A stretch of 12,219 bases of DNA, from assembly GCA_000004985.1 (NCBI GenBank), contig GG739003.1. One strand, written 5' to 3'. How positions within the stretch are numbered: the first letter of the stretch is position 1; every line of letters begins with the position of its first letter. The notes under the pieces are model-generated. The model saw only the letters and a program-made list of their open reading frames with translations, was not told the origin of the DNA and did no database searches. This DNA is from Naegleria gruberi (Eukaryota). A program made the position numbers and the translations under genes. Positions 8,856 through 12,174 of the stretch are shown here, piece by piece.

Positions 8856-9713
8856 ATGGCCACTAAACAAGCATTGTGTGTTGGAGGTACATCAGGTATC
8901 GGAAGAGCATTGGCAATTAAATTCGCCTCTCAAAAATTCAATGTTTCAATCATGGGAAGAAGTGAAGAAGCAGGAAAGGAAATTATTGAAGAAATGAAAA
9001 AATTGAATCCAGATGGAAAATTTGAAATGATTAAAGTGGATGCCTCTCTCATGAAGGATATTGAAAAAGTGTGTGATGAATATAAACAAAATCATGATCG
9101 ATTGGATTATTGTGTTCTTTCACAGGGAATTGCAAGTATGAATGGAAGAACAGAAACAAAGGAAGGAATTGATGTAAAATTGGCACTTCATTATTATGGA
9201 AGAGTTATGTTTGTGAGACAATTGCAAGATTTATTGAGATTGACATCAAAGAATTCAGATGTGAGAGTCTTGACTGTTTTATCAGCTGGTGTTCATTCAC
9301 CTTACACTAAATTGGATGATTTGGATTTGAAACACAATTTTACATTGAAGAATGCAGCAGATGCAGCTGGATTTTACAATGATCTCGCCATGGATCAATT
9401 ATCCAAAGAAGAAGGCAATCAAAATATTGCATTCATTCATCAAGCTCCTGGATTCATTGCCACACAATGGGGACGTGAAATGCCAGCTGTCGTGAGATGG
9501 ACCACACGTTTCTTCCAAAACTTTGCCAGATCTCCAGAACAATGTGCCGACAATATTTACAAGGGATTAAGTTCAGAATCGACACGAAAGGGTTTCCATT
9601 TATTGGATGAACATGGAGAGCCAACAAAAGTGACAAAGAGTCATAGCGATAGTATCAGAGAAACAGTTTGGAAACACACTGTGGAATTGTTAAATAAGGC
9701 CCTTGGAAAATAA
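8856..9713 (+). CDS. Short-chain dehydrogenase/reductase (SDR) family Rossmann-fold protein, single exon; atypical (no canonical YxxxK)
   Basis: N-terminal VGGTSGIGRALA (TGxxxGxG dinucleotide-binding motif) with an IMGRS Arg after strand 2 (NADP-type). IHQAPGFIAT is a PG motif. The NNAG motif is replaced by LSQGIAS, and there is no Tyr-x3-Lys at the expected position. ATG at 8856, stop TAA at 9711-9713, AATAAA at 9741-9746. Confidence 0.7.
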   Translation: MATKQALCVGGTSGIGRALAIKFASQKFNVSIMGRSEEAGKEIIEEMKKLNPDGKFEMIKVDASLMKDIEKVCDEYKQNHDRLDYCVLSQGIASMNGRTETKEGIDVKLALHYYGRVMFVRQLQDLLRLTSKNSDVRVLTVLSAGVHSPYTKLDDLDLKHNFTLKNAADAAGFYNDLAMDQLSKEEGNQNIAFIHQAPGFIATQWGREMPAVVRWTTRFFQNFARSPEQCADNIYKGLSSESTRKGFHLLDEHGEPTKVTKSHSDSIRETVWKHTVELLNKALGK

Positions 9714-9944: not shown

Positions 9945-10937
9945 ATGCTTCCAATTCAACTCTTCGGACCCACGTGCGTTTTTGTTTCATCAAATGATGA
10001 AATTTTTATCGCTGATTGCAATAATCATCGAATTAGAAAATTAAATAATCAGAAAATCATGACAGTAGCAGGGAATGGTGAATTGGGGTTTTCGAGTGAT
10101 GGTGAATTGGCAATTAATGCTAAATTAAATTATCCGAATGGTGTGTTTGTTGTAAAGGAGGAAGTATATATTGCAGATTATCATAATCATCGAATTAGAA
10201 AGGTTTCGAATAATGCATAATTGAAACGATTGCTGGAAATGGAGAAGGTGGATTTGAAGGAGATAATGGTCCAGCTAAATTATCCAACGAGTGTGTTTGT
10301 TTCAGAAAATGGAGAAGTTTATATTTCGGATTATCTGAATAATCGAGTTAGAAAGGTTTTACAAAACGGAAATATTGTAACAATAGCAGGAAATGGAAAA
10401 TTAGGATGTTCAGGAGATGGTGGTTTGGCAATTAATGCCGAGCTCAACTGTCCAATGAATGTATTTGTATTCAACGAAGAGGTATATATTACGGATTCAG
10501 CAAATCATCGTATTAGAAAGGTTTCGAAAAGTGGAATAATTGAAACGATAGCTGGAAATGGAAACGAAGGATTCAGTGGAGATGACGGATTGGCCACTCA
10601 GGCTCAACTCAATTGTCCAATGAGCACATTTGTAAACTCTAATGGAGAAATTTATATTACAGATTCTAATAATTTTAGAATTAGAAAGGTTCAAAGAAAT
10701 GGAATAATTAAAACAATAGCAGGAAATGGAAATGATGGATTTGAAGGAGATGGTAGCTCAGCAACAAATGCCCAACTCAATTATCCAATGCATGTTTTTG
10801 TTTCTTCCAACGATGAAATGTATATATCCGATAGTGGCAATAATGCCATTCGAAAGGTATCAAGGAATGGAATTATTGAAACAGTAGCAGGAGAAGGGCC
10901 TTATTCACAAGGATACAGTGGCGATGTTTCGTTTTGA
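9945..10937 (+). CDS. Bacterial-type NHL-repeat beta-propeller protein: six tandem 54-56-aa repeats (consensus …TIAGNGxxGFSGDGGLAxxAQLNxPxxVFVxxxGEIYIxDxxNHRIRKVxxNGII…); frame disrupted at ~10215-10285 (possible pseudogene or assembly error)
   Basis: ATG at 9945 (AAAAAAATG context), stop TGA at 10935-10937. Repeat period is 162-168 nt, judged from the recurring attagaaagg landmark at 10032, 10194, ~10347, 10512, 10680 and ~10848. There is a single in-frame TAA at 10218-10220. The conserved peptide IIETIAGNGEGGFEGDNGPA is encoded in the +2 frame between 10217 and ~10276, and reading then returns to the original frame. Confidence 0.6.
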
Positions 10938-11092
10938 ATTCATGAAACACTGTTTCTAACATTTTCCAATCAAAATGACCAAGTTCGAAATCAGTTGACT
11001 CAAAACTATTCTTTGTAACCTTCAATTTCAATTCTGATTGAATATCTCAGCGTTTTCCACACCCAAGTGGAATTTTCAACCTCAAAAAAAAA

Positions 11093-11110
11093 ATGAAAGA
11101 CATTACTATG
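11093..11110 (+). CDS. Hypothetical 6-codon first exon (MKDITM) of the TM2-domain gene, donor atg|gtacgtttc at 11111; would splice in phase 0 to acceptor at 11328/11329
   Basis: ATG at 11093 in a CAAAAAAAAAATG context. GTACGT follows the 6th codon. There is no AG dinucleotide anywhere between 11113 and 11238. The phase is compatible with the exon starting at 11329. This is pure inference from splice-site logic. Confidence 0.25.
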
Positions 11111-11133
11111 GTACGTTTCGCGAATTTGATTTT

Positions 11134-11144
11134 TTTCCCGCCAA
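11134..11144 (+). promoter_or_regulatory. Second copy of TTTCCCGCCAA (E2F-like), with inverted CCAAT box (attgg) at 11206-11210
   Basis: ttttTTCCCGCCAAcac read directly, sharing an 11-mer with 6980-6990. gtgATTGGttc lies 65 bp downstream. Confidence 0.3.
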
Positions 11145-11328
11145 CACTTTGGATGCTCCATTTACCCACTTTCATGAACCAAAAAATTACGCGCCGATTG
11201 TGATTGGTTCATCATCATCGTCATCACGAATATTATTTGTATTTATTAATTATCTTATTATTCAATGTTCTTGCATGTTCGGTTTATCATGTCATTATCT
11301 TACATGTTTTTAAATATTTCCAAAATAG

Positions 11329-12174
11329 GCGTATGTGCTGTGGGCACTTTGTTTCTTTGGTTTATTTGGTATTCATCGATTTTATTTGAATTCGTGGACG
11401 ATGGGTATTGTTTACTTGTTCACATTTGGATTGTGTGGAGTGGGACAGATATTTGACGTTTTGTTGATTCCTGGATTGGTTGCCCAGGAGAATGGAACTA
11501 GCTCAAATAATAATGGATTAGTGTTTGGTTTTGGAAATAATATGTTTTCTGGTGGCAATTATGTTAACTTTAATAATGCTCAGCCTTATCAAGTCTCGAA
11601 TGGAAATGCTGGCTATTCTCAATATTATGTGAATGATGGACAACAGCAACCTCAATCATATGTTCCACCTCAACAACAAGAGCAACAAGAGGGTGGTGAA
11701 TCGAATGAATATGTACCACCTCAGCGAAATTCTGGATTTACAATGTACATTAATGGTCAACCTGTTGATTTGTCTAATGGAGGAACAATTTATATGGATG
11801 GCTCAGGAGAAGCTCAATACTACGCCAATGATGATGATAACGATGATCAGCATTTCAATAGTGTTTTTGATAACATGAGAAGAGCTGAGGAGAATAGAAG
11901 ATTACATGATAGCATCCGTAGAACGAACGAATCAATTAACAGAAGTAACGAAATACATAGAGAAAATATTAGACGAATGAATGAAAATATCCATAGAACC
12001 AATGAGCAAAATCGCAGAACCAACGAGAATAACATGAGAATGCATCATCAAAACATGAACAGAATGCACGACAATATGAGAATGCATCAAAATATTCATA
12101 GCCAGAACATGCAAAGAATGCATCAACAAAATACTATGAATAATATCAATAGAATGAATACTTTCAGAAGATAA
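11329..12174 (+). CDS. TM2-domain protein exon: two TM helices flanking HRFYL motif (AYVLWALCFFGLFGIHRFYLNSWTMGIVYLFTFGLCGVGQIFDVLL), followed by ~230-aa N/Q-rich then R/N/M/H-rich repetitive tail; stop TAA 12172-12174
   Basis: G-x-HRFYL-G between two hydrophobic helices matches the TM2 domain signature (Pfam TM2, conserved DRF/HRF motif). An in-frame TAG at 11326-11328 immediately precedes the exon and coincides with an …aaaatag acceptor. The ORF-track 'M' at 11335 is actually GTG. The tail contains quasi-periodic N-x-x-R-x-x-[EN] and MRMH/NRMH units. Confidence 0.65.
   Translation, partial: AYVLWALCFFGLFGIHRFYLNSWTMGIVYLFTFGLCGVGQIFDVLLIPGLVAQENGTSSNNNGLVFGFGNNMFSGGNYVNFNNAQPYQVSNGNAGYSQYYVNDGQQQPQSYVPPQQQEQQEGGESNEYVPPQRNSGFTMYINGQPVDLSNGGTIYMDGSGEAQYYANDDDNDDQHFNSVFDNMRRAEENRRLHDSIRRTNESINRSNEIHRENIRRMNENIHRTNEQNRRTNENNMRMHHQNMNRMHDNMRMHQNIHSQNMQRMHQQNTMNNINRMNTFRR

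Follow-up and report, generated by a model that had tools for sequence, protein, structure and literature searches.

The distal end of contig GG739003.1 of Naegleria gruberi raises the question of where a gene for a TM2-domain protein begins and, depending on the answer, what kind of membrane protein it encodes. The window, i.e., the whole stretch of DNA that was analysed, is this entire contig of 12,219 bp, which is AT-rich (∼33% GC). The protein read from the long open reading frame (ORF) near its end is 100% identical to N. gruberi EFC35854.1/XP_002668598.1/UniProt D2W503 (NAEGRDRAFT_76491), deposited as 'predicted protein'. An earlier inspection of the letters alone, here called the sequence-only reading, had recognised a TM2 hairpin at the N-terminus of this ORF, followed by a long repetitive tail, and had offered two upstream structures, a six-codon micro-exon or an alternative 90-nucleotide (nt) intron. 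We propose, with a rough probability of 80% for the explanation as a whole, that the locus is a two-exon gene encoding a 287-residue membrane protein composed of an N-terminal TM2 anchor and a Naegleria-type tail. The parts of the gene around its start are the following:

10938–11092, + strand: intergenic region and 5' leader, from the stop of the NHL-repeat gene (10937) to the ATG; an A-run abuts the ATG
11093–11110, + strand: coding exon 1, an 18-nt micro-exon, ATG AAA GAC ATT ACT ATG, giving MKDITM
11111–11328, + strand: intron 1, 218 nt, phase 0, GTACGT...AAAATAG
11329–12174, + strand: coding exon 2, residues 7–287 and the TAA stop (12172–12174), in an open frame
11329–11460, + strand: exon-2 part of the TM2 domain (PF05154), with loop motif HRF and an AlphaFold2 helix-loop-helix
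11401–11403, + strand: internal ATG (Met31), start codon of the public model XP_002668598.1

Each sequence feature named by the sequence-only reading was found where it had been placed. The donor GTACGT stands at 11111, and an in-frame TAG at 11326–11328 doubles as AG acceptor directly before the exon with the first TM2 helix, as had been noticed from the letters. Exon 2 opens at 11329 with AYVLWALCFFGLFGIHRFY and its frame reads AYVLWALCFFGLFGIHRFYLNS... Written with its flanks, the N. gruberi intron is bounded by aaaaaaaaa ATGAAAGACATTACTATG / gtacgt, 218 nt, aaaatag / GCGTATGTG, and the predicted junction joins ...ACTATG to GCGTATGTG.

Support for this structure comes from a comparison of the DNA of four taxa, namely the window, N. 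lovaniensis (L001), an N. fowleri-type contig (L002) and a fourth Naegleria-like contig from a metagenome (L004). N. lovaniensis carries ATGAAAGACTTGTTGCTG / gtacgt, a 149-nt intron and tttatag / GCCTATGTC; the N. fowleri-type contig ATGAAAGACTTGTTATTG / gtaagt, a 157-nt intron and ttcatag / GCCTATATT; the metagenome contig ATGAAAGATTTAGTGTTG / gtatgt, an 81-nt intron and cgaaag / GCTTACATT. In all four taxa the first coding exon is 18 nt long, the ATG is preceded by an A-rich run, and a phase-0 intron follows codon 6. The micro-exon follows the pattern ATG-AAA-GAY-NNN-NNN-NTG and then GT, reads MKDLLL or MKDLVL outside N. gruberi, and varies synonymously (GAC/GAT; TTG/TTA/CTG). The other species have Leu as their sixth residue, which identifies ATG 11093, and not ATG 11108, as the conserved initiator. 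Among the orthologues the intron shows an identity of 0.51–0.61 vs 0.68–0.89 for the flanking exons; between N. lovaniensis and the N. fowleri-type contig it rises from 0.61 in the intron to 0.79 where exon 2 begins and 0.89 in exon 1. Metagenome contig ERZ929261 (L003) represents a second N. gruberi strain; its exon 2 is 98.4% identical and differs by two indels that keep the frame, one in a run of Asn and the other in a run of Asp, and its intron portion is much more diverged than exon 2.

The annotated orthologues begin in the same way, with MKDLLLAYVCW in N. lovaniensis C9374_002191 (304 residues) and MKDLLLAYICW in N. fowleri FDP41_005308 (XP_044560694.1, 329 residues). Both annotations were made with BRAKER1 and RNA-seq (PMC6125883, PMC6831594), and the MKDLLLAY starts therefore give the orthologous junction indirect transcript support. 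The micro-exon model of the sequence-only reading (MKDITM, donor GTACGT at 11111, phase-0 intron of 218 nt) is thus kept in four Naegleria-type genomes and used in two RNA-seq-guided annotations. On this comparative sequence evidence the two-exon model, with ATG 11093, a six-codon exon and the 218-nt phase-0 intron, is correct. A point against it is that the 287-residue product is absent from the protein collection, which holds only the truncated model and a call from the second strain with a prokaryote-style GTG start. The orthologues have already been deposited as 'TM2 domain-containing protein' or 'hypothetical protein', and a literature search found no paper mentioning these loci.

For the Pfam TM2 profile PF05154 (length 51) the curated gathering threshold is 27.9 bits. 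The full protein of 287 residues reaches 58.5 bits (E = 7.8e-16) over profile positions 3–50 and protein residues 2–50, while exon 2 alone scores 49.3–52.4 bits over profile positions 7–50. The TM2 identity for which a Pfam check had been suggested is borne out, and the same holds for the N-terminal placement of the hairpin, with 6 residues before helix 1. Since the match of exon 2 begins at profile position 7 of 51, a few domain residues are missing from this exon, and inclusion of the micro-exon extends the match to profile position 3. The Pfam bit scores alone could not separate the three gene models (58.5 with the micro-exon, 56.1 with the 90-nt intron, 52.4 for exon 2 alone); it was the orthologue comparison that settled the choice.

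If the intron were the 90-nt interval 11239–11328, the coding sequence would run upstream through 11038–11238 to an unseen exon, possibly one for a signal peptide. This interval exists, has GT..AG ends and is phase-compatible, and its score against TM2 is far above the threshold. However, it leaves the gene without a start codon: the upstream reading holds no Met in 11038–11238, in accordance with the earlier observation of a Met-free frame, and a stop closes it just before 11038. Its ...SSSSSSRILF stretch has no counterpart at the orthologous loci, where the introns align poorly, and every orthologue starts at MKD. An upstream exon with a signal peptide, the finding that the sequence-only reading had named as contrary to its model, is not credible, because the gap from the stop of the NHL gene at 10937 to ATG 11093 measures only 155 nt, and the two ATGs in 10938–11092 give just 5- and 7-codon ORFs. 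We regard the 90-nt intron as extremely improbable. Very unlikely as well is the public single-exon model, in which translation starts at Met31 (11401), the protein has 257 residues and one transmembrane helix, and 11329–11400 is 5' untranslated region. It has in its favour that it is the deposited model and requires no intron, but the first TM2 helix and the HRFYLNS loop, conserved in four taxa, are encoded in frame by the 72 nt ahead of Met31, and the orthologue annotations contain helix 1. The public model XP_002668598.1 (P0001; 257 residues) begins MGIVYLF, loses helix 1 and scores 14.0 bits against PF05154, below the 27.9-bit cut-off. Judged from these alignments, XP_002668598.1 is an N-terminal truncation by 30 residues. 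The corrected start of the two-exon gene restores these residues to an entry (XP_002668598.1/D2W503) that goes unrecognised as a TM2-domain protein. The case also shows that 18-nt first coding exons escape ab initio annotation in Naegleria and that they are recovered by species comparison.

With the start in place, the remaining question is what the protein carries behind its hairpin. In AlphaFold2 models the transmembrane hairpin is present in both the N. gruberi and the N. fowleri protein, and a short HRFYLNS loop joins the helices. Invariant in 37 aligned family sequences are G17, G20, R23, Y25, G32, G40, G43, G45 and D49 (residue numbers of the 281-residue query plus 6). The tail of ∼230 residues consists of an acidic disordered linker, a small conserved block and a single basic helix of ∼105 residues. 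Its elements are listed here with the predicted local distance difference test (pLDDT) score of AlphaFold2 and the ratio of nonsynonymous to synonymous substitution rates (dN/dS) where available:

11509–11736, + strand: disordered acidic linker rich in N/G/Q/S/Y, residues 67–142; pLDDT <50, net charge −13, dN/dS ∼0.43
11656–11670 and 11707–11721, + strand: two conserved (S/E)Y(V/I)PP motifs in the linker
11734–11808, + strand: conserved block GFTMYINGQPVDLSNGGTIYMDGSG, residues 142–166; modelled as a small beta meander, dN/dS ∼0.19
11851–12168, + strand: long predicted alpha-helix, residues 181–286; R/N/M/H-rich, quasi-periodic at 7 residues, dN/dS ∼0.29
12061–12095, + strand: 18-nt tandem duplication of 1.9 copies, (N)RMH(D/Q)NM units; Tandem Repeats Finder (TRF) score 49, 82% matches

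The models of N. gruberi and N. fowleri share the same overall layout. Over the conserved block AlphaFold2 gives a four-strand meander of low confidence (pLDDT ∼40–60), and the C-terminal helix is predicted to run uninterrupted for ∼100–106 residues, with a pLDDT of 90–98 in N. gruberi and 80–94 in N. fowleri. The core NGQxVDLSxGGT of the block is invariant in the orthologue tails and recurs in the fragment P0080 from the metagenome contig; the C-terminal NTF(x)RR is retained in the orthologues. Between N. lovaniensis and the N. fowleri-type contig dN/dS is lowest in the beta block (0.19), followed by TM2 (0.25) and the C-terminal helix (0.29), and the linker (0.43) is the loosest region. By this codon comparison the tail is under purifying selection.

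A long tail, first N/Q-rich and then R/N/M/H-rich and quasi-repetitive, had been described from the letters, and both composition and self-similarity confirm this. The helix contains 23% N, 20% R, 12% M, 9% H and 8% E but no K, and the last 100 residues have an isoelectric point of 11.9 and a net charge of +10. Repeated 3-mers number 23 in the last 100 residues of the N. gruberi protein vs 8.5 ± 2.6 in composition-preserving shuffles, and the best off-diagonal self-alignment of the same segment scores 115 at offset 7 vs 59.5 ± 9.6 in shuffled sequences. The two orthologues show self-similarity at offset 8 (P ≤ 0.01), so that the periodic units exceed chance in all three proteins. At the DNA level TRF finds just the one small duplication listed above, indicating that the repeat of the tail is old and degenerate and not a recent expansion.

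Homologues of the tail were sought with a profile built from the three orthologue tails in an exhaustive search of 1.84 billion representative proteins. This returned solely Naegleria-type proteins (P0002, P0001, P0080) and two weak multi-repeat matches. The latter are bacterial cadherin/VCBS-type repeats matching at NGQPVDLSxGGT (E ∼1e-6, summed over 8–13 repeats), which we take as motif resemblance and not as homology. No family common to the orthologues emerged from Pfam (E ≤ 10), and NCBIfam, PDB sequence profiles and Foldseek against PDB yielded no matches to the tail; a sub-threshold RodZ_C match falls in the low-complexity linker and was disregarded. In these searches the tail is restricted to Naegleria-type sequences. 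On the metagenome contig an R/N/M/Q-rich tail (VREQNQRLNEEQQQRNQRIMDRMHRENEQQ...) lies on the opposite strand at 1380–1541, directly after the NGQPVDLS block. This arrangement is probably an inverted chimeric assembly, so that the called 139-residue protein P0080 ends in an artefactual LLLLESSLLIL.

In the long helix, residues of opposite charge are paired at i/i+3 and i/i+4 28, 23 and 22 times in the three orthologues vs ∼8 ± 2.4 in shuffled sequences (28 vs 7.7 ± 2.4 for N. gruberi), an enrichment of about threefold in all three, and conserved Arg and Glu recur at 7-residue spacing. Such pairs are a hallmark of single alpha-helix (SAH) domains (PMC5347031, PMC5812594). Like the SAHs of the INCENP coil, the CAF-1 KER and myosin, the predicted Naegleria helix is long and uninterrupted, with a periodicity of ∼7 residues and a network of opposite charges. 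In the models the likeness to SAHs is partial, and several points weigh against it. The salt-bridge pattern does not extend beyond the first ∼50 residues, as the second half of the helix has only 1–2 acidic residues; with ∼30% charged residues, 23% Asn and 12% Met the helix is unlike characterised SAHs, which are dominated by E, K and R (PMC5347031, PMC5812594); and a confident AlphaFold2 prediction of a long helix cannot tell a monomer from an oligomer.

The helix might instead be a coiled-coil oligomerisation domain, which would make the protein a membrane-anchored dimer or trimer. A coiled coil had also been suggested by the sequence-only reading, and the 7–8-residue periodicity, the long and confidently predicted helix, and Met, Ile and Leu frequently spaced 3–4 residues apart, as read directly from the sequence, speak for it. 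However, the Fourier, register and helical-moment tests revealed no hydrophobic seam: Fourier analysis gave no significant hydrophobic signal at 3.5 residues, the best heptad registers have hydrophobic residues at 3–5 of 8 a/d positions with a drifting register, and at 100 or 102.9 degrees the hydrophobic residues have no preferred face in either half of the helix in any orthologue. An amphipathic helix was rejected for lack of a hydrophobic face in the helical-moment tests. We consider the coiled coil unlikely and hold, with lower confidence, that the helix would not be a classical one.

A prion-like tail had been suggested as well. Prion-like domains are expected to have at least 30 Q/N in 80 consecutive residues and few charged residues. 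Here the count peaks at 28 in N. gruberi and at 30 and 32 in the orthologues; these values are borderline, the richest stretch lies inside the Arg-rich predicted helix, and the N/Q/Y-rich composition of the N. gruberi linker is not conserved in the orthologues; the suggestion thus finds little backing. Met/His motifs can bind Cu, and metal binding by the units MRMHH, RMHD and RMHQ was considered and set aside. A Met/His metal site is unlikely because His is not conserved, its number in the second half of the helix falling from 6 in N. gruberi to 3 in N. lovaniensis and 0 in N. fowleri.

How the protein might work can be sketched from these parts. The TM2 hairpin would anchor it in the membrane and could serve as an oligomerisation or association module. 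The tail would face the cytosol, which we hold at lower confidence than the gene structure, because a signal peptide is missing, the tail lacks conserved Cys and conserved sequons, its last 100 residues contain 20 Arg, and prokaryotic relatives carry DNA-binding-type tails that are presumably cytosolic. The helix may then act as a monomeric, salt-bridge-stabilised, semi-rigid basic spacer of ∼15 nm (estimated from 105 residues at ∼0.15 nm per residue) on a flexible acidic tether or, alternatively, as a polyanion-binding arm tethered to the membrane via the acidic linker. Among basic SAHs, INCENP binds microtubules and CAF-1 binds DNA (PMC4571873, PMC10335832).

The cytosolic orientation has to be weighed against the topology of metazoan TM2D proteins, in which the loop would be cytosolic and the short N-terminus as well as the 230-residue tail would be extracellular or lumenal. 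Metazoan TM2D proteins are drawn with the loop intracellular and both termini outside (PMC8714088), and an NGT sequon is present at residue 61 in N. gruberi. Read directly from the sequence, the charges flanking the hairpin (MKD before it, HR in its loop, QEN after it) are ambiguous; the loop is the one place by the hairpin with a clear positive charge. These points count against a cytosolic tail. Conversely, the features of the tail named above, i.e., the missing signal peptide, the lack of conserved Cys and conserved sequons and the abundance of Arg, argue against its exposure outside, and the winged-helix-like or helix-hairpin-helix tails of prokaryotic relatives should be cytoplasmic (PMC3581485). 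An outside tail appears to us the less probable arrangement, though one to be taken seriously. The boldest reading would be a genus-specific protein in which a prokaryote-type N-terminal TM2 is fused to a newly evolved tail, and the Asn/Met/Arg-rich helix, a new compositional class of stable SAH, would form a membrane-tethered basic spacer that binds a polyanion such as microtubules, nucleic acid or acidic lipids. This is a long shot; if it is true that the Asn/Met/Arg-rich helix is a stable monomer, the sequence rules for SAHs would broaden.

Intron 1 contains the E2F-like sequence TTTCCCGC at 11134–11141 on the + strand and ATTGG at 11203–11207. The E2F-like site and the inverted CCAAT that the sequence-only reading had placed in this intron are hence present as motifs, but a functional site is unsupported, since the E2F-like motif is missing from the orthologous TM2 introns. 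In the window the E2F-like octamer TTTSSCGC occurs 3 times vs 0.41 expected, a number reached in 0 of 200 shuffles. The copies lie at 5704–5711 (−), 6980–6987 (+) and 11134–11141 (+), each at most ∼250 nt from a gene start (ATG 5459 on the minus strand, ATG 7007 and ATG 11093). At the orthologous TM2 loci the octamer was found 0 times in N. lovaniensis and once in the N. fowleri-type contig, 265 nt upstream of the ATG.

The neighbours of the TM2 gene in the window are eukaryotic and include NHL-repeat proteins, a short-chain dehydrogenase and a Tet-like dioxygenase. Two runs of N (∼1000–1650 and ∼2990–3720), either assembly gaps or masking, break ORFs on both strands. The upstream NHL-repeat gene (9945–10937, +) has an in-frame TAA at 10218–10220, and within 10204–10265 ∼50 nt match the NHL consensus (IETIAGNGEGGFEGDNGP) in another frame only, which points to two compensating frame disruptions (a pseudogene or assembly errors on a small scaffold). 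The region around 10218, the sole candidate in the window for a second intron whose splice signals could be compared, was rejected since it resembles such a frame disruption. The ORF that emerges from the masked gap at 3751–4512 (+) is a paralogue of the structurally solved Tet-like dioxygenase NgTet1 (PDB 4LT5 and 5CG8, E ∼1e-25; the Pfam match to Tet_JBP is weak, E = 0.0076), with its N-terminal part inside the N-masked gap. On the minus strand at 4653–5459 an extremely Glu-rich ORF of 268 residues with long EEEAEEVENKEEE-type repeats begins MGSACSS, which looks like a start of the N-myristoylation/palmitoylation type. In the second N. gruberi strain a short-chain dehydrogenase gene (L003 1144–2040) follows 199 nt downstream of the TM2 gene, a position beyond the end of the window, whose own short-chain dehydrogenase lies upstream (8856–9713). 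In N. lovaniensis and the N. fowleri-type contig a UAA/EamA transporter instead adjoins the TM2 gene downstream; given these differing downstream neighbours, synteny is not retained across the genus.

Within the genus, the N. fowleri and N. lovaniensis orthologues share with N. gruberi the MKD micro-exon, the intron position, the N-terminal TM2, the YVPP motifs, the NGQxVDLSxGGT block, a basic R/N/M/Q helix of ∼100 residues and the NTFxRR end, although overall identity to the N. gruberi protein is merely ∼36–43%. Their linkers are rich in G/H/S/T/P, whereas that of N. gruberi is rich in N/Q/Y, and their helices repeat at offset 8 instead of 7 and contain far fewer His. New for N. gruberi are the corrected start and the description of the tail; in other respects it is an ordinary, uncharacterised protein of a known family. 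In practical terms the result is of modest value, and no long-standing question becomes newly testable.

Outside Naegleria the best matches are prokaryotic proteins of 160–200 residues, with up to 65% identity over ∼55 residues of the hairpin. In proteins labelled 'TM2 domain-containing membrane protein YozV' or 'NINE protein' (P0005, P0013, P0019) TM2 lies within the first ∼60 residues, as in Naegleria, and both groups share the HRFY loop, YLFTFGLFGxGQxxDLxLIPGMVxxxN and a soluble tail thereafter; following helix 2, Naegleria GQIFDVLLIPGLVAQEN aligns with the prokaryotic consensus GQxxDLxLIPGMVxxxN. The tails themselves do not align. That of the prokaryotes is a conserved winged-helix-like module of ∼70 residues ending in TGAxRYxFD (with sub-threshold matches only to MarR_2 and PCI), and the module LLxAAxxxxGxLS...TGAxRYxFD is absent from all Naegleria sequences. 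A rival reading is that the hairpin entered the Naegleria lineage by horizontal transfer from bacteria and was then fused to a newly evolved tail. Its N-terminal position and the motif GQxxDxxLIPGxVxxxN after helix 2 are common to Naegleria and prokaryotes, and metazoan TM2D1-3 are absent among the 79 significant matches of a search that was seeded by shared words and is hence biased. However, with ∼50 residues the domain cannot support a reliable tree, the gene is interrupted by a conserved spliceosomal intron and resembles Naegleria in base composition, and oyster proteins with four tandem TM2 units carry the same YLFTFGLFGxG and FYLN motifs at 45% identity. Horizontal transfer seems distinctly doubtful to us.

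Function of the TM2 domain is known only through the Notch and gamma-secretase genetics of metazoan TM2D proteins (PMC8714088, PMC3581485). With TM2D1, TM2D2 and TM2D3 (Drosophila biscotti, amaretto and almondex) the Naegleria protein shares PF05154, the two-helix hairpin and the conserved Arg-Phe of the loop (PMC8714088). In the metazoan proteins a signal sequence and a divergent N-terminal ectodomain precede TM2, which has a DRF loop and lies near the C-terminus with a short C-tail (PMC8714088), whereas the Naegleria protein has neither signal sequence nor ectodomain but only 6 residues before helix 1, and ∼230 residues after the hairpin. Its loop reads HRF and not DRF, as in 3 other Naegleria-type sequences and most bacterial relatives. 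The unusual architecture claimed by the sequence-only reading thus stands when measured against metazoan TM2D1-3, but not against the TM2 family as a whole, where N-terminal TM2 followed by a tail occurs in prokaryotes and bacterial proteins with N-terminal TM2 and subsequent SHOCT and helix-hairpin-helix modules have been described (PMC3581485). A study of the Drosophila TM2D genes suggests an origin of this gene family early in metazoan evolution (PMC8714088). The Naegleria protein shows that the layout of metazoan TM2D1-3 is not the only one among eukaryotic TM2 proteins. Taken together, the prokaryotic, bacterial and oyster layouts indicate that the Naegleria protein keeps a widespread type of hairpin and carries its own tail.

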